Origin: a virus
Lineage: Duplodnaviria; Caudoviricetes
Virus record (IMG/VR): IMGVR_UViG_3300010366_000012
Span: 11,012 to 75,011 of that record
Strand: one strand, 5' to 3'
DNA: 64,000 nt
Made by a program: the position numbers and the translations under genes
The notes under the pieces: model-generated
The model's database searches: none
Told to the model about the DNA's origin: nothing
The model's input: only the letters and a program-made list of their open reading frames with translations
Shown here: in pieces, positions 787-64,000 of the stretch
Position numbering within the stretch: position 1 is the first letter of the stretch
Layout: each line of letters opens with the position of its first letter

Positions 787-1164
787 ATGACTGACGCTGC
801 TGCTGAGCAGGCACAGATCAACACGCTGGCCGACGCGATCAACGTGGTGGCTGCGCACCAGCAGGCTGCGCAAACGCAGATCCAGGCGTACATCGCTGCG
901 CACCCGGATGCCCCGCCTGCCGACCTGACCCCGCTGGTCAGCGCGGTCGCCTCGCTGCAGAACGCCGACACCGGCCTGGCTGCAGTGCTGCCCGCAATGC
1001 CAGATGCCCCTGCTCCCGCAGACCCGATCCCGGCTCCCCCGGACGACCCGTCTGTCCCGGTCGTGGATGCCCCGGTGGACACTGCGCCCACCGACAGCGG
1101 CGCTGCCACTGACGGGACCACCGTGGACACTGGCCCGCCGCCAGATCAGCCAGCTTCTTTCTGA
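787..1164 (+). CDS. hypothetical protein (coiled coil plus acidic Pro-rich tail)
   Basis: AAGGAG 6 nt before ATG 787; 3' part of track ORF 469..1164. Confidence 0.65.
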   Translation: MTDAAAEQAQINTLADAINVVAAHQQAAQTQIQAYIAAHPDAPPADLTPLVSAVASLQNADTGLAAVLPAMPDAPAPADPIPAPPDDPSVPVVDAPVDTAPTDSGAATDGTTVDTGPPPDQPASF

Positions 1165-1249
1165 CTCGCCTCTTGCGGGGCATACTGAACGTGTTCCGCT
1201 CGACTTAGCTGGCTGTCCCCGCCCAGCGCCTCTGCGAGAGGCGGGGATC

Positions 1250-4200
1250 ATGGCACGCCCGGTCGCGCTCACACCGCTGCGGGCTGCTGCCGCGCGGCGG
1301 ATGCGGCGCACCGCCCAGGCGCTGGACGAAGATCACCCTGAGACGATCGCCGGGGATCACCTGCGGGATGCCGCCCGGGTGCTGGAGCGCGGGTCCGCTG
1401 ATGGAGCGAAGCGGCACCTCGATGCCGCGATGCAGCTGCTGACGCCGCAGTCCCTGCTGCGGCACGGCATCCGCGATGACGAGGGCCACGCGACTGCCAA
1501 GCACCACATGCACGAGGTTCACCGGCATCACCTCGCGGTGCAGGACATCGAGGACACGGCGGGCAGCAACGACCGGCTGGCCGCGATGGCCCGTGCCGCC
1601 CGTGGCCAGCCCGAGCCGATGGAGCCGTTCCACCGGCAGCCGCCCGAGCTGCTCCCGGCCATCGCCGCCACTGGTGATCATGGGAATCGCGTGATCGACC
1701 TGAAGGCCACGGCCTGGGAGCGCGAAATGCGCGACCGGTATGGCAAATGGGCCGCCTCCCCCGACTTCGCGCCGATCACCTCGATGTTCGCTCCGGGCGG
1801 GCCGCACGGCTTCCGCGGCCACTCGATCGGATCGCAGCCGGAGAAGGGCTCGGTGTTCGGCCGTCACCTGAGCATGCACGAGGCTCTCGGCGCGGCCGAA
1901 GCGCTCGGCCCGGGACACCCGAAGCAGGTGGCCAGCGCGCAGATGGCCGAGCGGGCGGGCCTCCCGAAGTTCCAGCGCAAGGTGTATGACCTGCTGCGCA
2001 AGCGCGGCCGGGGGCACTACGGCGCGCTAGTCCTGGCGCGGGCGACTACGCCCGATGTGTTCCGGGCGGGCACGTTCGCCAACAGCAGCCCGGCTGTGCA
2101 GCTGGCGTTCTGGGAGCACGAGCGGCGCAACGCGCTCGGGGAGTGGACGACCGGCGCGGACCCGCACCAGGCACCGTTCGGCTCGAACCTGCGGCCGGGC
2201 AGCCTCAACCACCTGCGCGCGATCGAGGATCTGTCCCGGCTGACCGGGTGGAACGCCACTGATGGCCGCCCGTCCTCAGACACCTTGCGCAACTCGCTGC
2301 ACCACCTGGCGCACGCGCTGGCGCTGCGCGACATGAAGTCCGCCCGGGTGCATATGGCATCGGCCCGGTGGGCCGACGAGCACGAGGCGGGCGGCGCGTA
2401 CACGCCTGAGCTGGACGCGATCGAGCGCTCTCTCGGCCTGGTGAACGTCCACCGGTCGGCCAGGTGGATGCGCCGCAGCGGCGGCCACGGGCCACATGCC
2501 TACGGGCGCACCGGCACGCCGCTGGAGCCGACGCGGGGCGCGATGCACGTGCCGGTCACCGAAATGATGTCCAACGCCACCGAGCTAGCCGCCCCGTTCC
2601 GCTACCGGCACGGCTGGATCAAGCTGGAGGATGCGAGCCCGCTGGACGGGCGGGTGGTCATCGCCAAGGCGGCGGGCGGCGGGCGGGTCGCGGGCGTCTA
2701 TGACCACGCGACCCGGACCGTGCAGCCCCGGCACACCAAGCGGCTCCCGGTCACCGCCGTGCGGAAGGCGGGCGAAGTGATGTCTGCAGCCAAGACGCCG
2801 CGCGGCCTGGCGAAGTACCGGGCCGCGTATGGCGCATATGGCCTGGCTACCGAGCTGTCGGCACGGACAGGAGCACTTGGAACGTACACTAAGACGTGGG
2901 TAAATGGGACTACGGCAACCGTCACGCGAGGGCTAGGCGGCACCTCGGCTCGCCGCGCAGCCATCCTTGCGCAGATTGTGGCGGCCAGGCGATCCACTGG
3001 GCTACGATCCACGGCCGGGATGGGGAGAGCCCTGAGGACTATCGGCCGCTCTGCAACCCCTGCCACATCGCCTACGACGGCGGTCACGCTGGCGAGCGCA
3101 ACGGCCGGGCCAGGCTCACTTGGAACGAGGTTGCTGAGATCAGAAGGCGGTACGCGGCAGGAGAGGGTGGCTACAGCACCTTTGCCCGCGAGTACGGGAT
3201 CGCCCGGTCAGCCATTGCGGACATCATCAAGCACCGTCATTGGGTTGTCCGCTAGAACTCCCTTCTTGGAGCGCACGCCCGCGCCGCGGGGCCGCCCTGG
3301 CGGGCCGGGCCTGTATCACGTCCAGGGCATGGGCCACACCGCCTACCTGCAACAGGTGGTCAAGGCGCTGATCGAGAAGCGCGGCATGCGGCCGGACAAG
3401 GCGTATGCGATTGCCCGCGCGGCGATCCGCAAGTGGGCGGCCCGGTCGAGGCATCCCGAGGTGCGCGGCGCGGCGACCCGGGCCGAGGCCGGGGAGATCG
3501 CCCGGCAGGCCCGCGCCAAGGCGCACACCGCGGCTGCCTGGGAAGTGGCGGACGTCCTGATCGAGCTGGCGTGCGAGCCGATCGAGCTTTTCAACCCCTA
3601 CCATGCGCCACCCGGCGCTGGCGGCGGGCAGTTCACCACGCAGCAGGGCGCGGGCCAGGGGCAGGCCAAGGGCAGCAAGGCCCAGCGCCGGGCCAAGCTG
3701 GTCAAGCAGATCGCCAGCCTGCGGCGGCAGATCGCGGCGCTCCGGGCGCAGCTCCCGTCCACCTCGCCGCGCAAGCCTGGCAAGCCTGGCAAGTCCAAGG
3801 GCAGCACCCCGGCCAAGAAAGGCGCGGGCGCGCAGTCTGCCAAGCAGGCCAGGCAGGGCAAGCAGTCGGCTAAGACCGCGGCGCGCAAGACCGCCTCGGT
3901 GGCCACGATCCATGCCAAGATCGCCGCGCTGCGGGCCGAGCTGCAGGCCGACATCGCCGCGCTGCGGAAGCTGGCCAACGACCAGCCCGCGATCGAGCTG
4001 ATCGGGGACGGCCACGGGCACCACATCCCCGGCACGCCGGACGTCTACAGCCACGGCTGGCGGCCACTGGCCGGGACCACGATCGGGCCTAAGGGCATCC
4101 GCATTCCGGGCAGTGGCGGTGGTCCCCCAAAAGTCGCTAGCGCGGGACGGGTGCGCGCCGCGGTCAAGGCCGCCCGCATCACCAGGCCCGCGGTCACCCC

Positions 4201-4984
4201 GGCTGCCACCGCACCGGCCGCGCCCAAGCCCTCTGCGGGCGGGACCGCTGGCCTGGCTGCCGCGATGTCCTCTGGCGTGAAGAGCCGCAAGGAGCCCGGG
4301 AAGGCGTCGGTCAGCGGGTCGCAGGGCCTGCAGGGCGGCACCGAGATCGTCACGTTCAACAACGGCGCTCAGTTCGTCCACAAGGACTACAAGTACCTGC
4401 CGCTTCCCCCGGGCCTCCAGCAACTGCAGGCGCAGAAGGAGGTGCTGGCTGCCAAGATCTCCAAGGCCCTCGGCGCGGGAGCGCCGGACATCATCCCCGA
4501 TCCGGGCGGCAGCCCGACCAGTTTCTACATGGCGAAGATCGAGGGAGTCTCCGGCATGGAGAAGTTCAATGGCCCGGCCAGTGGCCTCCAGGGTTCCGAC
4601 GCGGCGGCAGCGGAGAAGTTCTTCAACTCCCCCGAGGGCAAGAAGATCGGGCTGCTGGACATGATCATCGGGCATGCCGACCGGCACCTGGGCAACGTCA
4701 TGGTCACCCCGGACGGCAAGCCAGTCCCGATCGACCACAATGACACCTGGGGCGCGGTGGACCTGAACGGCAACATGGTCACCACCAGCCCGTTTGCCGC
4801 CGAGCTAGAGAAGCAGATGAAGGCGGGCAACAGCCCGTTCAGCGTGGATGACATCGACCGGATCACCGCGCAGGTCAAGGCGCTCCAGCCCGAGTTCGGC
4901 AAGCTGAACTTCGACGCCGGGTCCAGCTACTACAGCATGACGATGAGTGAGCTGGCCCGGATCAGGAAGCTGGTGGCGAAGTGA
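1250..4984 (+). CDS. head-associated polyprotein 1 with C-terminal PI3/4-kinase/HipA-like kinase domain
   Basis: ATG 1250 in frame with track ORF; kinase motifs FVHK, KEVLAAKISKALG, DMIIGHADRHLGNVM..PIDH; repeated [VI][DE]L module boundaries. Confidence 0.75.
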   Translation: MARPVALTPLRAAAARRMRRTAQALDEDHPETIAGDHLRDAARVLERGSADGAKRHLDAAMQLLTPQSLLRHGIRDDEGHATAKHHMHEVHRHHLAVQDIEDTAGSNDRLAAMARAARGQPEPMEPFHRQPPELLPAIAATGDHGNRVIDLKATAWEREMRDRYGKWAASPDFAPITSMFAPGGPHGFRGHSIGSQPEKGSVFGRHLSMHEALGAAEALGPGHPKQVASAQMAERAGLPKFQRKVYDLLRKRGRGHYGALVLARATTPDVFRAGTFANSSPAVQLAFWEHERRNALGEWTTGADPHQAPFGSNLRPGSLNHLRAIEDLSRLTGWNATDGRPSSDTLRNSLHHLAHALALRDMKSARVHMASARWADEHEAGGAYTPELDAIERSLGLVNVHRSARWMRRSGGHGPHAYGRTGTPLEPTRGAMHVPVTEMMSNATELAAPFRYRHGWIKLEDASPLDGRVVIAKAAGGGRVAGVYDHATRTVQPRHTKRLPVTAVRKAGEVMSAAKTPRGLAKYRAAYGAYGLATELSARTGALGTYTKTWVNGTTATVTRGLGGTSARRAAILAQIVAARRSTGLRSTAGMGRALRTIGRSATPATSPTTAVTLASATAGPGSLGTRLLRSEGGTRQERVATAPLPASTGSPGQPLRTSSSTVIGLSARTPFLERTPAPRGRPGGPGLYHVQGMGHTAYLQQVVKALIEKRGMRPDKAYAIARAAIRKWAARSRHPEVRGAATRAEAGEIARQARAKAHTAAAWEVADVLIELACEPIELFNPYHAPPGAGGGQFTTQQGAGQGQAKGSKAQRRAKLVKQIASLRRQIAALRAQLPSTSPRKPGKPGKSKGSTPAKKGAGAQSAKQARQGKQSAKTAARKTASVATIHAKIAALRAELQADIAALRKLANDQPAIELIGDGHGHHIPGTPDVYSHGWRPLAGTTIGPKGIRIPGSGGGPPKVASAGRVRAAVKAARITRPAVTPAATAPAAPKPSAGGTAGLAAAMSSGVKSRKEPGKASVSGSQGLQGGTEIVTFNNGAQFVHKDYKYLPLPPGLQQLQAQKEVLAAKISKALGAGAPDIIPDPGGSPTSFYMAKIEGVSGMEKFNGPASGLQGSDAAAAEKFFNSPEGKKIGLLDMIIGHADRHLGNVMVTPDGKPVPIDHNDTWGAVDLNGNMVTTSPFAAELEKQMKAGNSPFSVDDIDRITAQVKALQPEFGKLNFDAGSSYYSMTMSELARIRKLVAK
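2896..3255 (+). mobile_element. HNH homing endonuclease with C-terminal HTH DNA-binding module, overprinted on polyprotein 1
   Basis: CADC..H..LCNPCH..YD plus GERNGRARLTWNEVAEIRR; lies in a 390-bp segment flanked by a duplicated LSART peptide. Confidence 0.8.
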
Positions 4985-5178
4985 TCGAGATCCACAGCGA
5001 GCGCGGAAAGATCGGGGAGGTTGACCTGAAGGGCGGCAAGCTGACCGGATCGACTCAGGGTATCCAGCACGTCTGCGATCACATGGTTGCCAAGCACGGC
5101 GGGCACGCCGAGGCGTTCAAGGCGATGGCCAGCCTCAACAACGGATACGTGTGGGCCAGTGGCGCTGCAGCTCAGTGA
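4981..5178 (+). CDS. small protein, paralog A (candidate kinase immunity protein)
   Basis: GTGA overlap with polyprotein 1 stop; similar to the next gene (G.V.L..G.LTG...L.NGYV.AS). Confidence 0.75.
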   Translation: MIEIHSERGKIGEVDLKGGKLTGSTQGIQHVCDHMVAKHGGHAEAFKAMASLNNGYVWASGAAAQ

Positions 5179-5347
5179 CAAGGAGGGCGTGCTCGGCCAC
5201 GTCTGGCTGCAGGATGGCCAGCTGACCGGGGACAACCCGTCTGCGCAGCAGCTGGCGGACAAGTATCAGGCCAGGTACGGCGCTGACGCTTACGCCGAGC
5301 TGGCGAAGCTGGACAACGGATACGTGCGGGCCAGTGAATATCAGTGA
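5159..5347 (+). CDS. small protein, paralog B (candidate kinase immunity protein)
   Basis: GTG 5159; aligns end to end with 4981..5178; shared DNA ACAACGGATACGTG. Confidence 0.75.
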   Translation: MALQLSDKEGVLGHVWLQDGQLTGDNPSAQQLADKYQARYGADAYAELAKLDNGYVRASEYQ

Positions 5348-8300
5348 CCAGGTTGACCTGGCAGCCTGGACGCACGAGCGCCGGGTGCCCAAGGGCATGC
5401 CTGGCGCTGGGCGGTGGATCAGGGGCGGGCCGGGCATCTTCCGGGTGGCCGGGTTCGAGCCGGGCGTGGCCAAGCCCGAGGTGGGCGACAAGGTGGTGGG
5501 GGAGGGGCCTGGCGATCTCCCCGGCCTGCTGCTCGGGCACGTGGTGGCACGGGTGGGCCTGGTGGCCGCGGTGGACGCCGACGACGGGCACCGCTACCAG
5601 TTCGACTGGACGAGCGGCAAGGTGGTCGGGGACCGCGTGCCACTGTCGCGGGCGATGCCCGCCGAGCAGCTGCGCCAGGCGGGCCAGCACGAGGCGGCAT
5701 TGCGCGAGCGGCAGCACAACTTCCGCAGGCAGGCCAACGCCACCTGGACGGTAGATGAGAAGGGCTCGATCGTCCACCACGCGCATGCGCCGCAATCCCT
5801 GGTGGACCGGGTGTCAAGGTTCCGCGCCAAGATCCGCGCGCAGGCTGGGGCTGACGTCAGCCCGCCCCCTCATCACGCCCCCGGTGTCTCGGCGGGTGTG
5901 CGGGCGCTCCGGCAGGCCCGCGAGCGGGAGAAGGCCGCGATCATTTCGGTGGAGCGTGACCCGCATCCGCCCAACCCGCTCGCGCCGTGGCTGGTGAAGG
6001 CCGCGGACCTCAGCGAGTGGCACGTCGATGACCGCGAGGCGGGCCGCCTGCACAAGATGCTCCGCGAGCGCGAGGGCCTGCACTACACCGCCCCGGGCAC
6101 TGAGATCGCCCCCGGCGTCAAGCAGTACATGCTGCCGGGCACCGAGAAGCTGCAGCCCACCACCGAGTACGGCCAGAACAGCCCCCCGGTGAAAGAGCTG
6201 CGCTCGGTGATCACGCTGGGCGAGCTGGAGCGGGCCAAGATGCTGCCCGAGGACCAGCCCGAGCAGGGCATCCAGGGCGTGACCCGCATCCTCACCCTGC
6301 CGGACTACGGCGAGGGCGTGCGGAAGGTCGTGGTCAAGGACCAGGCCCCGGAGCGCAACGACCGCGAAGAGCTGTCCTACTACGTCAGCCAGGCGCTCGG
6401 CGGCGGGTCCGGCCTGCCCACGGTGGTGCGCTACCCGGGCAACCCGGGCCGGATCGTGGAAGATGTGGTGCCCGGACGGCCTGCCGCCCGCTATGCGATG
6501 GATGCAGTGACCCCGGGCGGCGACTGGGGGCCGAATTACGACGAGCAGAGCGTGCTGGACGAGATCGCCTACAGCCCGACCGGCCAGGAGATCGGGCTGC
6601 TGGACTACCTGACCGGCAACTATGACCGGCACGACTACAACTACCTGATTGACGAGCAGGGCGTCCCGCACCCGATTGACATGGGCATGGCGCAGTTCGA
6701 CGGCGGCACTGATAGCCCGTTCTGGGAGGGCGAAGAGGGCCAGGTGCCCGCCGAGGTGGTCGATGAATGGGCAGCCGAGCTGGCGAAGATCGAGCCCGAG
6801 TTCCGCCGCCTCGGGCATGAGGACTGGTACGTGGTGATGATGGATGCCCTGTCCCGCCTGGCCGAGTCCAGCGAGTATTCGATCGGTGCGCAGCTCGGCG
6901 TGATCGAGCTGACCCGCAGCCCGGCCTGGCTGCACGAGCTGCGCATCCCCAAGGGCAGGCCGCACGCCGGGGAGTGGGTTCATTCCCCGTCCGATGTGCC
7001 GGGCAAGGGCCTGGACCGCTACAAGATGCCCCCGCACTCCCGGCTGCTCAACCCCCGGGCCGACGTCGAAGATCCGGCCGATTACCCATTCTTCAAGAAG
7101 CACCCGGTCAGCGTGCAGAACGTGCTCGATGCCTACGACGCGGTGCCCGAGCAGACGCGCAAGGAGGGCATGAAGTGGTACTCCGACGCGCACCTGCTGG
7201 CCAGGGCGATCGGGATGCTCGGCGGCGGTCACGGGGATGACAGGCAGAACGCCGAGCTGGGCGCGATCCTGCTGGGCAACTACAGCAGCTCGGCTAACTG
7301 GCCGATCAACATGTTCCGCGCGGCGCGGGCGTCGGATGAGAACAAGCCGATCGCCAAGGGCGACGGGTATGTGTCCCAGGACCAGGTGAAGAAGGCCCAG
7401 AAGGCCCTGGACGGCATGAGCATTGATGACGTCCTGATCAGCCCCAAGACACGCAGCTTCGCCCACCTGCTGGCCACGGGCGATGACTCACCCGACGACC
7501 CCTACGGGCACGTGGTGATCGACGCGCATGCGCTGAACGTGGCGATGGGCGGCGGGGAGCGCGGGCTGACCTACGTCCGGGGCAAGAAGCAGCAGGAGCT
7601 GCCGCCCGAGGACACCCCGCCGCTCGATGACGCCCGCGCGCACGAGTATGTCGGGGACATGTACCGGGAGGCCGCCCGGATCATCAGCAAGCGGGACGGG
7701 CAGCTGATCACCCCCTACCAGGTGCAGGCGGTCACCTGGGTCCAGCAGGTGCTGGCCAACATGGCCCTGGACAAGGCGGAAATGGAGGGCGCTGAGGGTG
7801 GCGTGCTGGGCCGGGCCAAGGGCCGGTTGTCGGCCAAGGCCAAGGACTGGCAGCGCTGGCTGGCCTATGCCAAGGCACACAATCTGCAGCTGGTGCCCGG
7901 CGTGTCGGCGCTGGCGCACGAGGCGATGATGGCGCAGCTGATCGAGCTGATCGGGGAGGACGCCATCTACAGCCAGGTGATCGAGCTGGACTTCAACCCG
8001 GGCCAGCCGCGCGGGCCGGACGGGAAGTGGATCAAGATTGGGGGGCTCACGGCGCTCGACCCGTTCTACAACGAGCTGCCCGAGTCCGGGCACCGCGGCA
8101 CCGTCCGGGTCAAGGGCACGCTCGGGCCGGGCGGGCTGGGCCGCGAGCGCGAGGACGCCGAGCGGCTGGCTGCCTACCGCGAGCAGCAGTACCAGGCGAC
8201 GAAGGTGCAACGGCAGCGGCAGCACGCCTACCCGGAGATCGGGCCGGAGAATGCCCGGGGCAACAGCAGGCCGGTCAGCCCCGAAGAGTTCCAGCACCTC

Positions 8301-8918
8301 GCCTCGCTCGGCAACCAGTGGATCGACCAGGCCAAAGATCACCGCGCCCCGATCATCGGCCTCGAAGGCCCGGAGTGGGATGCAGTCAAGGCGCGCAGCT
8401 ACGGCGAGGTGACCAAGAGCTGGGGCGGCGCGACGATCGACACCGACACCGGCAAGCCGCTGGCCCATGATGCTGACGTGTACGCAATCAGCGTCAAGCC
8501 CCGCGGGATGTACACCGTCTCGGTCCCCGAGTCGGCCACGGCCGAAGAGTTCGGCCGGGCGATGGACCGGGCCAAGGAGCTGTTCCGCCCGGCGCTGGAG
8601 CGGCGCGGATTCTACCTCGGCGTGTTCCACGACGATGACGAGGGCCGGATCGACATCGACCCGGTGGCCATCGTGGACTCGATCCCGCTGGTCGAGCAGG
8701 TCGGCGCGTACACCCGGGCGATTGGCGGCGCATACCATTTCAAGAGCGGCGACGGGTTCTGGCCGCCGCACGTCGAGCAGGGCGCGAGCATGGCAGACGA
8801 CGACACTCACTTCGAGCACGGGTATGCCCAGTGGCACACCCAGGCGGTGGCCGTGCAGGAGCCCGAGCCGGACGAGCCGGGCATCGCGGAGCAGCTGGGC
8901 GAAATCGGGCAGATGTAA
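5334..8918 (+). CDS. head-associated polyprotein 2: PI3/4-kinase-like domain, glycosylase-like domain, C-terminal SAM-lyase-like domain
   Basis: DYLTGNYDRHDYNYL..PIDMG; GMKWY..A / PKTRSF / VVIDAH; YLGVFHD...IDID. Confidence 0.7.
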   Translation: MNISDQVDLAAWTHERRVPKGMPGAGRWIRGGPGIFRVAGFEPGVAKPEVGDKVVGEGPGDLPGLLLGHVVARVGLVAAVDADDGHRYQFDWTSGKVVGDRVPLSRAMPAEQLRQAGQHEAALRERQHNFRRQANATWTVDEKGSIVHHAHAPQSLVDRVSRFRAKIRAQAGADVSPPPHHAPGVSAGVRALRQAREREKAAIISVERDPHPPNPLAPWLVKAADLSEWHVDDREAGRLHKMLREREGLHYTAPGTEIAPGVKQYMLPGTEKLQPTTEYGQNSPPVKELRSVITLGELERAKMLPEDQPEQGIQGVTRILTLPDYGEGVRKVVVKDQAPERNDREELSYYVSQALGGGSGLPTVVRYPGNPGRIVEDVVPGRPAARYAMDAVTPGGDWGPNYDEQSVLDEIAYSPTGQEIGLLDYLTGNYDRHDYNYLIDEQGVPHPIDMGMAQFDGGTDSPFWEGEEGQVPAEVVDEWAAELAKIEPEFRRLGHEDWYVVMMDALSRLAESSEYSIGAQLGVIELTRSPAWLHELRIPKGRPHAGEWVHSPSDVPGKGLDRYKMPPHSRLLNPRADVEDPADYPFFKKHPVSVQNVLDAYDAVPEQTRKEGMKWYSDAHLLARAIGMLGGGHGDDRQNAELGAILLGNYSSSANWPINMFRAARASDENKPIAKGDGYVSQDQVKKAQKALDGMSIDDVLISPKTRSFAHLLATGDDSPDDPYGHVVIDAHALNVAMGGGERGLTYVRGKKQQELPPEDTPPLDDARAHEYVGDMYREAARIISKRDGQLITPYQVQAVTWVQQVLANMALDKAEMEGAEGGVLGRAKGRLSAKAKDWQRWLAYAKAHNLQLVPGVSALAHEAMMAQLIELIGEDAIYSQVIELDFNPGQPRGPDGKWIKIGGLTALDPFYNELPESGHRGTVRVKGTLGPGGLGREREDAERLAAYREQQYQATKVQRQRQHAYPEIGPENARGNSRPVSPEEFQHLASLGNQWIDQAKDHRAPIIGLEGPEWDAVKARSYGEVTKSWGGATIDTDTGKPLAHDADVYAISVKPRGMYTVSVPESATAEEFGRAMDRAKELFRPALERRGFYLGVFHDDDEGRIDIDPVAIVDSIPLVEQVGAYTRAIGGAYHFKSGDGFWPPHVEQGASMADDDTHFEHGYAQWHTQAVAVQEPEPDEPGIAEQLGEIGQM

Positions 8919-33514: not shown

Positions 33515-34009
33515 TTAGCCAGCCAGCCGGGCTGCTCGCAGCGGATTGCGCCGGGCATGCACCTCGGCCGCGTGAATCCGCACCGCGCGGTACAGGTCGC
33601 TCGGCCCCCAGGTGGCGTGGTAGTAGACCTTGCCCTCCGGGCTCACCCAGTAGATCCCCTTGCACCCGTTGCAGCTCTTGCACAGCGTGGCCAGGTTCGG
33701 CTTCCAGGTGAGCCCGCCCATGATCCACGGGGTGATGTGGTCGATCTGCAGGCCCGGCCACCTCGCCCGCTTGCCCCTGCCGACCTGCTTCGGCGCGAAC
33801 CCGCACGCCACGCAGCGGTGCCGGTCGGCGGCCAGCACCTCGCGCCGCAGCCGCGCGCCTATCCGGTCATTCTTGCCGCGGACCCCGTGGCGCACCTTGG
33901 CACGCCAGCGCTGCCGCCAGCGCCGGGGCCACAGCAGCCCGCGCGGCCTGATCAGGCAGGCCAGCGTCACGTAGGCGGCCAGCACGGCCAGCACGGCATC
34001 CCCGCTCAC
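33515..34009 (-). CDS. HNH endonuclease with N-terminal TM segment
   Basis: R..VL..D..RCVAC...LQIDHITPW..GG.....NLATLCKSCN..K. Confidence 0.85.
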   Translation of the reverse strand: MSGDAVLAVLAAYVTLACLIRPRGLLWPRRWRQRWRAKVRHGVRGKNDRIGARLRREVLAADRHRCVACGFAPKQVGRGKRARWPGLQIDHITPWIMGGLTWKPNLATLCKSCNGCKGIYWVSPEGKVYYHATWGPSDLYRAVRIHAAEVHARRNPLRAARLAG

Positions 34010-35892
34010 TTGACTGCCACCAGCCTGTCCCCCTCGGCGTCCTTGACCTTCCCGGCCTCGCGCAGCTGGGCCAGCTCTTCGGCCACGGTGCTCGGCGGCA
34101 TGGTCCCCATCATCTTGCTGATCAGCTGGCCCATCGTGACCGGTGAGCGCAGCTTAGCCAGGATCAGCAGCTGCCGGGCGGCGGCGTCGATCGCCGCGTC
34201 GTTCAGCTGGCGCACCTCGGCAGCCCCGGCCTCGACCGACTCCCTCACGTGCCGGGCCATCGACTCGTCCAGCGCAGTAATGTCCAGGCTCTCCGCGACG
34301 TCGTAGACGTCCGAGCTGGGGCCGAGGGTGTCGGTCCGCATGGTCACGCCCGGCCGCAGGTCCGCGCCGGAGCTGTAGCCCAGCCCCCAGGTCGGGCGGC
34401 CGGGGGCGAACACCTTGGGCAGGTCCACCGGGTTCTTCGGCAGGTTGACGTAGCTGCCGGTCACCTTGTCCCCGGTGCGGTGGCAGACCACCGTCCCCGC
34501 GGCCAGGATCGAGCGGATCTCCTGCTGCTGCAGCTCAGCCAGGGACGGCACCTGGGCGGCCAGCCGGAACCTGATCCCGGCCTTGCGGCCGAGCTTCAGC
34601 ATGTCGAGGATCAGCGCGGTCGCGCCATCGACGGCCAGCAGGATCGGGGCCTCGTCAATCGTGACTTCCACGATTGGCAGGTCGATCATGAACGGGTTGA
34701 AGAATCCCATCCCCTGGCGTGGTTTCTTGCACTCACCGTCGCACCGGTCAAGGAACACGCCGTGGCGACGGCACCACCACACCGAGGCCATGTAATCCGA
34801 GCGCGCGAACATCCCGGCGTGCAGGCCGCGCAGCCAGGCCAGGCAGTCATCAGCCCCGCAGGCATACGGCACCACGCCCTTCCAGGCGGGCAGCGCCTGG
34901 CCCATTTGCGGGTCGAGGATCACCGGGGCGATGTAGCCCGAGGCGATCCCGATGGCCAGCGAGAGGTTGATCGTGGACGTCTTGCCCGAGCCGTCCGCCC
35001 CCGCGATGATCGTGTGCTTGGTGCCATCCTCCGGCCCCTGCCAGAACGTCTCATGCACTGGCTTGCCGTCAGGGAACCGCCCGATCACCGCGAGCCCGGT
35101 GGCCGGGTCGATCGTCCCGCCGTCCCACAGCCGGGCCTGCTCCAGCGTGCCCTCGCGCAGGATGGTCAGCAGCCCGTGGTGCTTCTCGCCGGTCGGGTGG
35201 TCCTCGGCGTAGGCGGTGGTGACCGCCTTCTGGAACCCGGCTGCGATGGCAGTGGGCTTGGCCACGATCATGTCGATGTTGGTCTTGGCCCCGTCGCAGA
35301 TGATCTCGTGCTGCACCCCGCCCTCGACGGGCAGCGGGTCACCGAGCCAGGCCAGCCAGCCCTGCGCCTCCGCGAGCGCGTCGAACTGCTCCCTGACCGA
35401 GCGTGGCGGCGGGGCCTTCTTGTCCGCGGGCCGCCAGCGGTATCGCTCCAGCCAGAACCCGTAGGGGAAGGCCCAGCCCAGCAGCCCGGCCGCGCTCCAG
35501 ATGCCGAGCCCGGCGAACATCCCGGCCAGGCCCCAGGCCACCGCCCAGGCTGCCGCGGACTGGGTGTGCAGCCGCATGAACTTCGGCCAGTGCCGGGTTG
35601 CGGCCACCGTGACCGCGACCACGAGCAGCCCCAGCACCCCGGCCAGCTTCCAGCTCAGCCCGAGGGGCACCACCACGTACCCGGCCGCCTGCAGCGCCAG
35701 CCAGCCCAGCGGGGCGAGCTGGTGGCGGAACCGGAAGGCGCGCACCTCCGGGGGCGGCACCCCGGCCAGCCGGGCCTGCGCCTCGGCAATCGCCTGCAGG
35801 TGCTTGGTGCCCCGCTTGCCGTCCACGATGAGGACCGGCCCCGGCGCGGCCTTGCCGCCCCGGGACCGGGCCTTCTGCAGCTGCCTGGCCAA
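34006..35892 (-). CDS. TraB/TraSA-like FtsK/SpoIIIE DNA translocase
   Basis: N-terminal TM segments; Walker A IAGADGSGKT, ILDPQ, Walker B VTIDE, GRKAGI, C-terminal wHTH. Confidence 0.8.
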   Translation of the reverse strand: MARQLQKARSRGGKAAPGPVLIVDGKRGTKHLQAIAEAQARLAGVPPPEVRAFRFRHQLAPLGWLALQAAGYVVVPLGLSWKLAGVLGLLVVAVTVAATRHWPKFMRLHTQSAAAWAVAWGLAGMFAGLGIWSAAGLLGWAFPYGFWLERYRWRPADKKAPPPRSVREQFDALAEAQGWLAWLGDPLPVEGGVQHEIICDGAKTNIDMIVAKPTAIAAGFQKAVTTAYAEDHPTGEKHHGLLTILREGTLEQARLWDGGTIDPATGLAVIGRFPDGKPVHETFWQGPEDGTKHTIIAGADGSGKTSTINLSLAIGIASGYIAPVILDPQMGQALPAWKGVVPYACGADDCLAWLRGLHAGMFARSDYMASVWWCRRHGVFLDRCDGECKKPRQGMGFFNPFMIDLPIVEVTIDEAPILLAVDGATALILDMLKLGRKAGIRFRLAAQVPSLAELQQQEIRSILAAGTVVCHRTGDKVTGSYVNLPKNPVDLPKVFAPGRPTWGLGYSSGADLRPGVTMRTDTLGPSSDVYDVAESLDITALDESMARHVRESVEAGAAEVRQLNDAAIDAAARQLLILAKLRSPVTMGQLISKMMGTMPPSTVAEELAQLREAGKVKDAEGDRLVAVK

Positions 35893-58600: not shown

Positions 58601-59059
58601 CTAGAGGGTACCTGTTGGTTCCGACAGAACGGCCACACCGGCCGGGGGCAGGTTGCCCGACCGGATCAGATGGGCCGCCAGGTGCTGTGCTGCCGCTTGC
58701 GCGTCGTCCTTGCCCGGCACCCACCAGCCGAGGGCTTTCAGCACCTCAGGCGTGGCGGTGAGCCGCTCGCGCGGTCCCGGTTCGAGCAGCTGGCACCCGT
58801 TCTTCAGCGCCGCGCGCCGGGCCACTCCGCTCATTTCCAGCGCGAGGTGCGCGTGCGTCTGCGGCCTGCGGCGGTCGATCCGGTACTTCTCCAAGATCAT
58901 CAGCAGTGCCGGTCCCCACTGCTGGCAGAGGTGCTCGACATGATCACCGGCTTCGAGGAACTCGTACTCATCCGCGTAGAACGCCCGGCCCTGCTCCCAG
59001 CAGCAGGCCAGCCCGGTCATGCCACCGCTGTCGATGGCCAGCACGCATGGGGGCATCAT
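58601..59059 (-). CDS. RuvC-like Holliday junction resolvase
   Basis: VLAIDSGG.TG, LE, DDAQAA..H. Confidence 0.8.
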   Translation of the reverse strand: MMPPCVLAIDSGGMTGLACCWEQGRAFYADEYEFLEAGDHVEHLCQQWGPALLMILEKYRIDRRRPQTHAHLALEMSGVARRAALKNGCQLLEPGPRERLTATPEVLKALGWWVPGKDDAQAAAQHLAAHLIRSGNLPPAGVAVLSEPTGTL

Positions 59060-60837
59060 GTCTTGACCCACCTCCCGGGCAGGATCTCGCCGGACCAGGT
59101 GAGCGGCAGCCGGTAGTTTGACCGGTCAGTCAGCACCTCCTGGGCGGCGTGCAGCACGTCGCGTGCCAGGTGCTTCGGGCAGGCCAGCAGCAGCTCGTCA
59201 TGCACCGGCAGCCGGAGGAACTCACCGATCCCGGCCGCATCGCAGGCGATGGCCCCGCGTTTGAGGTTCTCCGCGGCGCTGGATTGGATCTCGTAGTCAA
59301 TCCCGGCGTACTCCCGGCCCCGGTCCACGAACAGCCGCCTGCCCATCAGCGAGTAGACCGCGGGCCTGCCCTTGCCGTACTTGATCTTCTTCACCAGCTT
59401 GTTCGAGCGCATGGCCAGGGTGTGGTAGCGCTGCTTGAACCCGCGGTAGATCGGCTCCAGCTGCTCGACCGACACGCCCGCGGTGACCGCGGCTGTCTCC
59501 ATGCCGGAGCCATAGACCGTGGCATAGGCCGTGTTCTTGGTGGTCGGGTAGCGCGGGTCGGACTTGGCCACCTCTTCGCGGTAGATCTCGCTGGCCAGGT
59601 TGACGAAGAATGACCGCCCGGTGGCATCGCACATGGCGAAATCGGCTATCAGCTGCGCGTCCCCGCTGATGTGCGCGGCCAGCCGCATTTCGATCTGGTC
59701 GGCGTCGATGGTGATCAGCGCCTCATCCTCGCCGGGCACGTAGCTGCCGCGGACCGCTTCCACGATCCGGTCGAACTGGTGCATCGGGGGATCGGTGACC
59801 GAGCTGCGGCTGGTGCGCTGCGCGCCGATGGTGTGGATCGAGTAGTGGATCACATCGTCGGCCCCGGCCATCCGCAGGAACTTCTCCAGGTACTTGCCGA
59901 CAATGCCCTGGCCCTTTTTGGCATCGCGGATGGCAGCCAGCAATGGCGCGGCATGCGGGTAGTGCGCCTGGTATTCCAGCAGCACGTCCTTAGACACCTG
60001 CGGCATGCCCGTGCCGGTGCGGTAGAGGATTGGGACCCCGGCCGCTTCAAGAGCCCGGCCGACCTGCTCATTGGAATCGACCGAATTGATGCCCCACTCG
60101 CCGCGCAGCCAGAACATGGCGCGCTCGGTGAATGCGGTGATCTTGTCAATCCACTCGTGGATATAGGGCCGGTCGATGCGCATGCCCGCATTCATCATCG
60201 ACGCGCATATCGCGGCGTACCGCAATTCCATGTCGTAGACGTTGATGTACTGCCTGGCCTCACCCCAGTGCTTGTCAATCAGCCAGCTGGTCAGCACCGG
60301 GTCGGCTGCGCCATAGCGCCAGTATTCGGGCAGGCTGTCCGGCACCGTGGCCCAAGTCCATTTCTGGGCCTTCATGGCCTCTTTCAGCTCGCGCTCCCAC
60401 GCCGCGGCGGTCGGGTCAACATCCCGGCTCGCCCGCGTTTTCAGGTCGAGCGGGGCCGCGCTATCGACCAGGTGGCTGATCAGCTGGGCGTCATCGAGCC
60501 GGGAGAAGTCCAGCTGCAGCCCGCCCTGGTGATGGATCACCCGCTGGTCATAGTCCATGTTGAACATGCCCAGCCGCCCCGGCCACTTATCCAGCGCTTC
60601 GAGCGCGGGGCCGAACCACTGCGGGCCGAATGCCCAGCCATGCCGCTTGTCACCAAGCTGGATCATGCGCAGCCGGTCTTTGTAAGGCGACAAGCCGCTG
60701 CTCTCGGTGTCGCAGCAGACCATGCCGTCATGCCGCTCGCCCAGCCAGCGCCAGAACTCGCCCAGCGTCTGCATGTCTGATACCCGGTGCAGTCCTACGC
60801 TGTCGAGCACGCCGCCCCTCGGCAGCACTGCTGTCAT
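59056..60837 (-). CDS. polA: family A DNA polymerase with 3'-5' exonuclease
   Basis: CDTESSG (ExoI), DADQIEMR (motif A), KNTAYATVYG (motif B), VHDEL (motif C); RBS AGGGAG before ATG 60837. Confidence 0.95.
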   Translation of the reverse strand: MTAVLPRGGVLDSVGLHRVSDMQTLGEFWRWLGERHDGMVCCDTESSGLSPYKDRLRMIQLGDKRHGWAFGPQWFGPALEALDKWPGRLGMFNMDYDQRVIHHQGGLQLDFSRLDDAQLISHLVDSAAPLDLKTRASRDVDPTAAAWERELKEAMKAQKWTWATVPDSLPEYWRYGAADPVLTSWLIDKHWGEARQYINVYDMELRYAAICASMMNAGMRIDRPYIHEWIDKITAFTERAMFWLRGEWGINSVDSNEQVGRALEAAGVPILYRTGTGMPQVSKDVLLEYQAHYPHAAPLLAAIRDAKKGQGIVGKYLEKFLRMAGADDVIHYSIHTIGAQRTSRSSVTDPPMHQFDRIVEAVRGSYVPGEDEALITIDADQIEMRLAAHISGDAQLIADFAMCDATGRSFFVNLASEIYREEVAKSDPRYPTTKNTAYATVYGSGMETAAVTAGVSVEQLEPIYRGFKQRYHTLAMRSNKLVKKIKYGKGRPAVYSLMGRRLFVDRGREYAGIDYEIQSSAAENLKRGAIACDAAGIGEFLRLPVHDELLLACPKHLARDVLHAAQEVLTDRSNYRLPLTWSGEILPGRWVKT

Positions 60838-60871: not shown

Positions 60872-63800
60872 ATGCCTGCCATGCCATCCCCAGCCATGCC
60901 GGGCCGAGCCAAACCAATCCGCTGCGGTCCTGGCCTCGCCTTGCCCCTCCCCGCCTGCCACGTCTGACGCCGATGGTAACCGAGAGCCACGACAAGCCGC
61001 GCCTGCCCCGCCAAACCGGTCCCGCCCAGGCCCCGACGCACCTAGCCCCGCCTGCCATGCCATGCCTACCCGAGCCCTGCCGAGCCCTCGCGCACCTAGC
61101 CCTGTCCGTCCTGCCGAGCCCTGGCCAGCGATGCCCAGCCGTGCCACGGCCACGCCATGCCGATCCTGCCTGCCCTCGCCTAGCCCCGGCCATCCTGTCC
61201 CGGTCCCGCCATGCCTGCCGGGCCTTGCCGAGCCATGACCAGCAACGCCCTGCCATGCCCAGCCTGCCCTGCCTAGCCGCGCCGTGCCGTGACCGGCCAA
61301 CCCTAGCCTGTCCTGGCATGCCGAGCCGAGCCACGGCTAGCCGCGCCCGTCCTGCCTTACCGGGCCTTGCCGGTGCCTGCCCCGCCAGGCCGCAGCTCGC
61401 CGTGCCTGCCTGGCCGAGCCACACCATGGCCGTCCTAGCCGCGCCACTGCTAGCCAACCCACGCCTGCCGAGCCGTGCCCTGCCTGACCTTGCCCCGCCA
61501 CGACGGTGCGGGCCGGGCCAAGCCACGCCGAGCCTGCCACAGCTCGCCTGGCCATGCCGGTGCGCGCCTGGCCATGCCGTGACCAGCCTCGCCTGCCTGG
61601 CCAAGCCCAGCCCTGACTCGCCCTGCAGCTCCCTGGCTGCCGAGCCGGGACTTGCCTCCCCGCGCCCAGCCACAGGCCGCCCCGCCTCGCCACGCCTGCC
61701 TAGCCATGCCGGACCCAGGCCCCCACGCCCAGGCTAGCCTGCCGTGCCGAGCCACGCCGTCCCGCGCCAACCCACAGCCTGCCTTGCCCCGCCAATCCTG
61801 GCGTGCCGAGCCACGCCGGGCCGGTCCATCGCCTGCCCTGCCGGTCCTGCCTCGCCATGCCAACTCGCGCCGCGGCACGCCTCGCCTGGCCCGGACAGCC
61901 CTAGCCTGGCCGCTCCTGGCGTGCCACGCCATGGCTGTCCCAGCGGTGCCATGACCTGCCGAGCCTGCCTCGCCTACCCGCAGCCCGCCAAGCCGACGCT
62001 CGCCATGCCTCACCTGCCGAGCCCCGCCCTGCCTGGCCATCGCGCGCCAAGCGCTGCCGAGCCAAGCCGACCCGGGCCACGCCCCGCCTGCCCTGCCAGA
62101 GCGCGCCGGAGCCTGCCACGGCACACCGGGCCATGCCTGCCCTGCCCAGACTCGCCTCAGCCTGCCCAGAGCTGCCCTTCCGGTGCCTGCCCTGCCTGCC
62201 TAGCCTTGCCTTGCCATCGCATGACTTGCCACGCCAATCCTGGCGGGCCATGCCCGGCCGGTGCGACCCGGGCCAAGCCACGGCCATCCCTGCCATGGCT
62301 GCCCGGCCACGCCACTGCTTGGCTTACCGGTCCTTGGCAGTCCTCGCCCGCCCTGGCCACGACTGCCCTGCCGCGCCTTGCCTGGCTTGCCTTGCCATGG
62401 CATCGCAAACCGAGCCTCGCCTCAGCACCCCGCGCCAGTCCTGCCCAGCCCCGCCAGAGCGGGCCAATGTCTGCCTAGCCCCGCCACGCCTGCCGGGCCT
62501 TGCCATGGCATGGCTCGCCAAGCCGCGCCGGGCCATTGCCCGCCTGCCTCGCCCCGCCTCAGCGGGCCTTGCCGTGGCCAGCCAAACCAAGCCTGGCGGG
62601 CCATGCCGCGCCGTGCCAAGCCGAGACTTGCCCACCCGGGCCGAGCCCTGCCTTGCCTGCCATGCCGAGCCCTGCCGAGCCTAACCCTGCCGTGCGGTGC
62701 CGAGCCAAGCCAATCCTGCCCGGCCAGTCCCTGCCAGTCCTGTCCACGCCTAAGCCCACCTAGCCAGGCCGACCTGCCGATGCGCTGCTTGCCTTAGCCC
62801 GCCGAGCCAATCCTGGCACGCCGAGCCCTGCCGTCCCGAGCCGTGCCTACCCTAGCCCTGCCGAGTCGCGCCTGCCCCGCCTGGCCATGCCTTAGCTATC
62901 CTCGCCACGCCGCTCCCCCGCGGGCCATGCCTTGCCTGCCTTGCCGAGCCTGTCCCAGCCAGGACCGGCCAAGCCACGCGCTGGCGTGCCCCGCCTTGCC
63001 TGCCAAACCTAGCCCCGCCGAGCCGCCGCCGAGCCAACGCCCGCCAGTGCCTTCCGCGCCTCGCCTGCCATGCCTCGGCCGCCCTTACCACGGCTCGCCA
63101 TGCCTTCGCACGCCTGCCCTGGCCTGCCTTGCCACTCCGCGCCCTGCGAAAGCGGGCCTAGCCGATCCTGCCCTGGCGGGCCGGGCCTTGCCGAGCCTCG
63201 CCCGCGCACGCCGTGCCCAGCCTGCCCTGCCCTTGCATACCGGGCCGAGCCCCTGCGGACCCATCCATGCCGACCCCCGCCTTGGCACTCCCCGCCTGCC
63301 AGTCCCCGCCCCGGCGCACCTCGCCATGGCGCACCACGACTAACCCACCCGAGCCCTGCCTGCCGCGCCCGTCCTGGCGTGCCACCCCAAGCCTGGACCG
63401 ACCCGACCCGTCCCATCCCCGCCGACCCTTGGCCCGCCGCTCCCCGCCTGCCGTAGCTTGCCGAGCCTCGCCTACCCAAGCCCCGCCGACCCATACCATG
63501 CCTGCCCGGACACGCCCATGCGCACCGAGCCTTGCCAACACGGGCCGCGCCAAGCCAACGATCGCCAAGCCCTGCCTGCCTCGCCATAGCGAACCTCTGC
63601 TGGCCGCGCCTCGCCCAGCCAAGCCTGCCACGCCAAGCCTCGCACCAGCTCGCCTCGCCTCACCCGGCCCGTCCTGCCGCGCCAGCCCACGCCGAGCCCG
63701 GCCATCGCAAGCCATGGCGATCCTGCCGGGCCAGTGCCGCGCGGGCCTCGCCCCGCCGATCCCTGCCTGGCTCGCCGTGCCTAGCGTTAGCTCGCCCCGC

Positions 63801-64000
63801 CGTCGCGCGCCGCGCCATGCCCGGCCTGCCCGTCCCGGCCACGCCGGTCCCTTGCACACCGCCGCAAGCCCAGCCGTAACAAGCCCACCCATGCCCTGCC
63901 TGCCACGCGCCGCCTCGACTAACCTCGCCAGGCCCCGCCTTGGCGCACAGAGCCTGGCCATTCCTGCCTTGACGGTCCCTGCCGAGCCCTCGCTGGCCGA
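60872..64000 (-). repeat. array of ~55 units of (GGY-NN)n pentamers separated by GGCA tetramers; candidate guide-RNA array (VIPR-like), truncated at the window edge
   Basis: + strand parses as [NN-GCC/ACC]x8-15 then TGCC/TGGC; all 16 NN dinucleotides are used; several units decode to known protein motifs. Confidence 0.9.

Follow-up and report, generated by a model that had tools for sequence, protein, structure and literature searches.

VIPR was described in 2026 as an RNA-guided DNA silencing system that acts as a weapon between phages and other mobile elements (10.64898/2026.04.26.720920); further preprints report structures (10.64898/2026.04.26.720927) and work on phages and satellites (10.64898/2026.10.15.759431). 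According to these preprints, the guide RNA (vrRNA) consists of 9–16 YNNGG repeats. The small RAMP-fold protein Vipr (~20 kD) holds the GGY of each repeat and leaves the NN to pair with double-stranded DNA. In the target every third base is skipped (NNx), and in natural targets the skipped base is usually the codon wobble position. Either strand can be targeted, no protospacer-adjacent motif is needed and the outcome is transcriptional silencing. The published work describes Vipr protomers that polymerize along the RNA and a two-base pairing that gives an R-loop triplex, which blocks transcription. Type II vrRNAs carry a conserved structured 3′ tail, with staggered, ribozyme and single-guide forms as alternatives. 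In ‘staggered arrays’ consecutive vrRNAs overlap end to start by 1 nt (10.64898/2026.04.26.720920, fig. S18), an arrangement that, according to the same preprint, RNA sequencing did not confirm. The main texts of the preprints mention neither DISARM nor anti-defence. Here we describe a large staggered array in IMG/VR record IMGVR_UViG_3300010366_000012, and one of its guides (61467–61535). We think it probable that this is a phage VIPR guide directed against motif I of drmA, the helicase gene of the DISARM defence system, with a role in counter-defence. The window is the whole stretch of 64,000 nt that was analysed (G000:C1:11012-75011), and positions are those of the window unless stated otherwise.

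Between ~60878 and the end of the window, the + strand is C-rich (48% C, 75% G+C) and is built of pentamers, a near-constant GCC followed by a variable NN, which read as GGC-NN on the − strand. A 5 nt periodicity of 0.5–0.57 is found in this region and nowhere else in the 75,011 bp genome record. Phase-tracking parsed the array into 624 pentamer units forming at least 53 guides of 7–15 units, over more than 3.1 kb. The phase is broken ~60 times, in each case by a 4 nt unit that lacks one base (GCC-T-GCC or the variant CC-T-GGC). The guides abut via these 4 nt units and no 3′ tail follows the repeat tracts. On the − strand, 63% of the scaffold triplets of the whole array are GGC, 68% are GGY and 97% begin with G. 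As NN, all 16 dinucleotides are in use, at 2.7–9% each, a near-flat composition. No Rfam family, hammerhead included, was found in the array by an Rfam search. A coding reading of the array was considered and rejected: no frame is kept, and the 5 nt period is broken by the 4 nt units.

The guide at 61467–61535 corresponds to exactly one phase-consistent segment (61470–61534), which is delimited on both sides by a single phase-breaking T in a GCC-T-GCC context (Table 1). The + strand from 61470 reads GA gcc GT gcc CT gcc TG acc TT gcc CC gcc AC gac GG tgc GG gcc GG gcc AA gcc AC gcc GA gcc. Taken as codon positions 1 and 2, the 13 dinucleotides give (D/E)VL(C/W)(F/L)PTGGG(K/N)T(D/E), and the NNx target pattern encodes DVLWFPTGGGKTE. 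The vrRNA, which is read from the − strand, is complementary to the drmA sense strand. Twelve of the 14 scaffold triplets of this guide are GGY on the − strand; the two others, GCA and GUC, are adjacent. A preliminary description of this DNA had listed the same 13 dinucleotides, each of which is exact in the sequence, and had decoded them to the DrmA-type helicase motif I.

The pattern formed by the 26 fixed bases of the guide, with every third base left free, was searched in 185,579 species, one genome each. Exact matches (26/26) were found in 116 species genomes, against a chance expectation of ~3e-4 with equal base frequencies and of fewer than ~2 even at 0.35 per base. Each of the 116 matches falls in frame, its NN on codon positions 1 and 2, and lies in an open reading frame (ORF) of ~1000–1400 aa. 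The peptide at all 116 sites is DVLWFPTGGGKTE (EVLWF… in two of them), mostly followed by AYLGL, and the motif sits at a median position of residue 484 of 1176. The 116 sites comprise 109 distinct 38-mers that differ only at the skipped bases; thus, the wobble bases vary freely. The matched drmA genes come from Actinomycetota, Chloroflexota, Acidobacteriota, Bacillota and haloarchaea, and most of the matches sit on chromosomal contigs (0.1–13 Mb). The match starts and stops at the phase breaks of the guide, and the neighbouring guides do not continue into the flanking DrmA codons. Past the motif, DrmA continues with AYLGL (GC TA CT GG CT), where the next guide reads AC TC TG AT; on the other side, the DrmA codons before the D (A/V) are unmatched by the neighbouring guide. 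The pattern search had been proposed in the preliminary description, and its decoding is borne out: every one of the 116 sites matches at 13/13 dinucleotides, in codon phase and in a gene of the DrmA family.

The identity of the target rests on profile matches and on gene neighbourhood. Six ORFs were tested (from Nocardia, Streptomyces, Actinomadura, Mycolicibacter, a Chloroflexota metagenome-assembled genome and Halorubrum), and all six match PADLOC DrmA models with E-values of 1e-104 to 0, while Pfam finds only DEAD and Helicase_C in them. All 116 ORFs are homologous to these six (phmmer, E ≤ 1e-10). In the locus of Nocardia sp. FBN12 (L144; motif I site at G001:C1:4019018-4019055) the next two genes encode DrmB (ORF 4960–6861; PADLOC DrmB (DUF1998), E 2e-40) and DrmC (E 6e-11). 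Among the loci with at least 1.5 kb of downstream sequence (8 kb per locus), an iterated profile seeded with the FBN12 DrmB detects a DrmB homologue downstream in 64 of 64, and DrmC (PLD nuclease) is present within 8 kb in 26 of the 64. The upstream neighbours in one Streptomyces locus are UvrD-like and PbeA/type IV-like. With a 267-aa DrmA segment as query, no DrmA homologue was found in 50,697 phage records; the same segment detects homologues on 105 plasmid records, 22 of which are rated conjugative, including Streptomyces plasmids of 0.44–0.46 Mb. The guide pattern itself has no exact match in 2.9 million viral contigs. We conclude that the target is a defence gene of cells or plasmids and not a gene of a competing phage.

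Relaxing the search shows how specific and how frequent the sites are. At up to three mismatches, a set of 404 genomes gave 41 matches in 37 genomes, whereas the pattern read backwards gave none at the same threshold. Prevalence was estimated from 401 genomes drawn evenly from the class of Nocardia sp. FBN12: 34 carry a site at up to three mismatches (reversed control, 0); the site is exact in three genomes, differs at one base in seven (DLLWF…) and at two bases in many (DLLFF…, DLIWF…). The consensus DLL(W/F)FPTGGGKTEAY, given in the preliminary description, is thus a real and indeed the commoner variant in this sample, and it is the DVLWF variant that the guide fits exactly. Motif I is the best conserved stretch of the DISARM helicase. 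In the next-best 13-codon window, around motif II, positions 1 and 2 are identical in only 12% of 60 full-length DrmA genes, a comparison that is one-sided because these genes were chosen by motif I. Actinomadura fibrosa has, beside its exact site, a second DrmA-type site with two mismatches, DLIWFPTGGGKTE (G003:C13:534166-534203); some hosts therefore hold two DISARM-like helicases, with the guide exact for only one of them.

Within the window the guide has no target at up to three mismatches. Self-targeting was also considered for the array as a whole and rejected, the best matches of all guides in the phage's own 71.8 kb being no better than those of shuffled guides. The same guide was not found in other phages: its core in the 5 nt form is absent from the viral contigs, and the best partial match in 120 sibling loci has seven mismatches.

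These sibling loci connect arrays of this type to Vipr. At least 120 IMG/VR contigs contain the junction pattern GCCTGCC(NNGCC)4, mostly in arrays of 0.2–1.8 kb. In 84 of 118 sibling loci a gene of ~210 aa is present on the GGY strand, mostly upstream of the array, and a profile made from 14 of these genes matches PDB entry 36pp, ‘SUSP1 Vipr protein’, over almost its full length (E 4e-17). A second conserved gene of ~165 aa (alignment A2; for example L120:857-1360:+, L006:5192-5632:- and L030:6511-7029:+) lies beside vipr in 70 of the 118 staggered-array loci, always on the GGY strand. Its product, which shows the motif F-x-W-D-D…A-A-x-x-Y-R-L-x-Q-A-R, matched nothing in Pfam or PDB; we propose it as a candidate vap (accessory) protein for VIPR of this type. 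The fidelity of the scaffold varies between loci, from near-perfect GCC in L063:2425-2840 to 63% GCC in the present array. The NN of L063 are strongly pyrimidine-biased and of low complexity (TC/GC/AC/CT), whereas those of the present array are flat. The differences in scaffold fidelity suggest different Vipr clades or array ages. One sibling array of 1.6 kb (L028:2283-3560; IMGVR_UViG_3300047089_000307) contains at least six copies of a conserved element of ~45 nt, GTCCATCCCTTT-RC-GCCGGATGCTGCTGCTCCCGTGC on the GCC strand, spaced every 200–400 nt; this element may act as a promoter, mark a processing site or represent an insert of a ribozyme-like kind.

Compared with the published staggered arrays, the present one has the same GGY/NN pentamers, guides of similar length (7–15 units versus 9–16), the one-base stagger, no tail and an NNx reading in which the wobble base is skipped, and it is likewise phage-encoded. 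Its 53 or more guides contrast with the four vrRNAs of SUSP1. It differs from published VIPR in that its contig shows no vipr, in its more degenerate scaffold (68% GGY) and in its matched target, which is a host anti-phage defence gene and not a satellite, a prophage or another VIPR.

The following model would account for these features. The phage would make a Vipr–vrRNA filament whose NN bases pair with codon positions 1 and 2 of drmA at motif I. Bound ~1.5 kb into the gene, the filament would block transcription of drmA and of the downstream drmB and drmC. Since the wobble position goes unread, a single guide fits drmA genes even where they differ at all synonymous sites. Provided that the guide is expressed and loaded on Vipr, and that the actual host of the phage carries such a drmA, silencing may relieve DISARM and so benefit the phage. 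A phage guide aimed at a DISARM-like defence gene of the host, as the preliminary description had proposed, is supported at the level of sequence, and its reading as a guide agrees with the 1 nt skip rule of VIPR.

A second guide of 14 units (63379–63449) also leads to a defence-type gene. It matches four of five actinomycete genomes with two to three mismatches in 28 positions (reversed control, 0), and it has no exact match in metagenome contigs. The near-matched site is the N-terminal helix-turn-helix VSNWRRRHxDFPxP of N6 DNA methyltransferases, which are assigned to PADLOC MTase_I (E 4e-90), to mad1/mad2 and to Pfam N6_Mtase. Thus, two of the six guides examined point at defence-type genes.

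Table 1. Position of the array, of the guides discussed and of the adjacent polymerase gene in the window.
Feature	Position	Strand	Description
Staggered VIPR vrRNA array	60878..64000	−	5 nt periodicity, phase breaks, GGC-NN units in RNA sense
Guide against drmA, 13 NN units	61467..61535	−	+ strand NN: GA GT CT TG TT CC AC GG GG GG AA AC GA
3′ boundary of drmA guide (RNA sense)	61466	−	Single base of 4 nt unit GGCA, shifts the pentamer register
5′ boundary of drmA guide (RNA sense)	61535	−	Single base of 4 nt unit
Second guide, 14 units	63379..63449	−	Decodes to VT(K/N)WRRR(H/Q)P(D/E)(F/L)PAP
Family A DNA polymerase gene	59056..60774	−	PF00476, E 3.9e-32

Several observations weigh against a counter-defence guide. 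In published VIPR work perturbation of the GGY motif abolished silencing; here, two adjacent non-GGY triplets lie inside the drmA guide and 32% of the triplets of the array deviate from GGY. The natural VIPR targets published are mobile elements only (satellites, prophages and other VIPRs). A block of transcription leaves in place any DrmA protein already present when phage DNA enters, which makes the gain from silencing questionable in a first lytic infection, and a lysogenic route to pre-emptive silencing is not evident, since family searches of the contig found no tyrosine or serine recombinase family and no integrase. Exact sites are rare, with three in the 401 sampled genomes of the class and sites at up to one mismatch in 10. 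Three other guides of the array gave no target in the sets covered. Guide 63224–63297 was not found exactly in viral contigs, nor with up to three mismatches in five actinomycete genomes; guide 62245–62300 was found neither exactly in viral or metagenome contigs nor with up to two mismatches in the five genomes; guide 62016–62089 did not match these genomes at up to three mismatches. When the other guides of the array were compared with the 116 DISARM loci (8 kb around the sites), none matched at up to n/5 mismatches. Finally, no vipr or vap homologue was detected in the 75 kb contig (tblastn; hmmsearch, best E 0.78). The array reaches the right end of the linear IMG/VR record and, since it runs to the very end of the contig, was cut by the assembly. 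CheckV estimates the contig to be 96% complete, with ~3 kb of the genome missing. Because the contig ends inside the array and is nearly complete, vipr may belong to the missing ~3 kb; alternatively, this may be a ‘solo’ array. By the layout of the sibling loci, vipr and the candidate vap gene would both sit upstream on the − strand, past the end of the contig.

That no vipr was found on the contig bears on the idea that the guide is a relic or unused, that the array is decaying or ‘solo’ and lacks a Vipr partner, and that the drmA match is a fossil of past selection. VIPR-null phages with solo arrays are reported in the VIPR preprints, and both the low proportion of GGC triplets (63%) and the two non-GGY triplets of this guide would fit decay. 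Yet all 26 informative bases are intact in spite of the drifted scaffold, phase and delimiters are kept over 3.1 kb, and the contig stops within the array on the very side where the 84 sibling loci mostly carry vipr; we regard a relic as rather unlikely. Chance is a different matter. A random dinucleotide string might spell a common P-loop motif, the more so as the NN composition is near-flat and ~53 guides were scanned, which gives many chances, and several other motif-like guides found no target. Against this stand 116 exact 26-base matches where fewer than one is expected, all in one frame and in one family, the agreement with the DrmA-specific D-V-L-W-F and E on either side of the generic PTGGGKT, a match that begins and ends at the delimiters of the guide, and a reversed control with no match in 404 genomes. 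Coincidence is effectively excluded.

If drmA is the target, its silencing may still serve another purpose than protecting phage DNA from restriction, namely a conflict with megaplasmids, integrative and conjugative elements or defence islands that bear DISARM. Such a purpose would be in line with the published natural targets and with the DrmA homologues on plasmids, conjugative ones among them, and the problem of timing posed by an already expressed defence protein would weigh less. We consider it unlikely: the guide hits the helicase motif of a defence gene and not a gene for replication, regulation or transfer, no other guide matches in the 8 kb around the 116 sites, and most of the matches are on chromosomal contigs. 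The guide might also direct an effect other than silencing, for instance cleavage or unwinding at drmA by an accessory nuclease or helicase. Some VIPR types (III–V) have predicted nuclease or helicase vap genes, and the ~165 aa protein encoded beside vipr in the sibling loci is without a Pfam or PDB match. However, the nuclease-bearing types are described as host-encoded antiviral systems, and the conserved sibling neighbour is small and has no nuclease signature, so that an effector of this kind appears improbable. Silencing of drmA in the service of counter-defence is the reading that we favour.

The gene closest to the array on the contig, encoding a family A DNA polymerase, lies ~100 nt downstream of it on the same strand and is followed by genes for an SNF2 helicase and a PD-(D/E)XK nuclease. 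The polymerase gene is context and stands outside the VIPR system. A search with it returned only two distant viral relatives (37–46% identity), both without array or vipr, and megablast of 20.8 kb against the 50,697 phage records gave no match. Elsewhere in the window, two giant ORFs on the + strand (1004–4984, 1326 aa; 5334–8918, 1194 aa) each contain a PI3K/PI4K-type kinase motif, with Pfam E-values of 1.5e-6 for the first and 9e-3 for the second, the latter under the Pfam cut-off; the second also matches DUF7178. Such motifs are unusual cargo for the virion-gene arm of a phage. An ORF on the − strand (34006–35892) encodes an FtsK/SpoIIIE-like ATPase (Pfam E 1.3e-3, under the curated cut-off). 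The contig is that of a tailed phage.

Two other kinds of phage counter-measure invite comparison. Vibrio phage ICP1 reportedly carries a type I-F CRISPR-Cas system that uses contiguous spacers to degrade the PLE island. Like that system, the present array would be a phage-borne, RNA-guided system aimed at a host-resident anti-phage element; ICP1 spacers are said to match one specific element, whereas the present guide matches a protein motif that is conserved from phylum to phylum. Anti-DISARM and anti-restriction proteins, such as Ocr-type DNA mimics, act on defence proteins at once. The proposed outcome is the same, escape from a restriction-like defence, but the proposed guide would act at the gene, and slowly compared with the entry of DNA.

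The VIPR system, its code and the staggered architecture have been published already; a natural guide against a host immune gene is a new use. The exact and in-phase match to the catalytic motif of a defence helicase of the host suggests that VIPR has a second use, the silencing of bacterial immunity. Since it skips the wobble base, the guide effectively specifies the protein motif and fits 109 different drmA nucleotide sequences. We speculate, with less confidence than for the drmA guide itself, that large staggered VIPR arrays are broad-spectrum RNA-guided anti-defence libraries, in which each guide is written on codon positions 1 and 2 of the best conserved motif of a host immune gene, as here motif I of DrmA and the helix-turn-helix of a defence methyltransferase. 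If that were true, one guide could silence a defence across genera and even phyla, whatever the codon usage, and both this class of counter-defence and this natural role of VIPR would be new. Should the drmA guide work as proposed, decoding the array of a phage would predict which defences that phage can disarm, and the guide would be a natural template for programmable knock-down of defences in hosts that are hard to manipulate.

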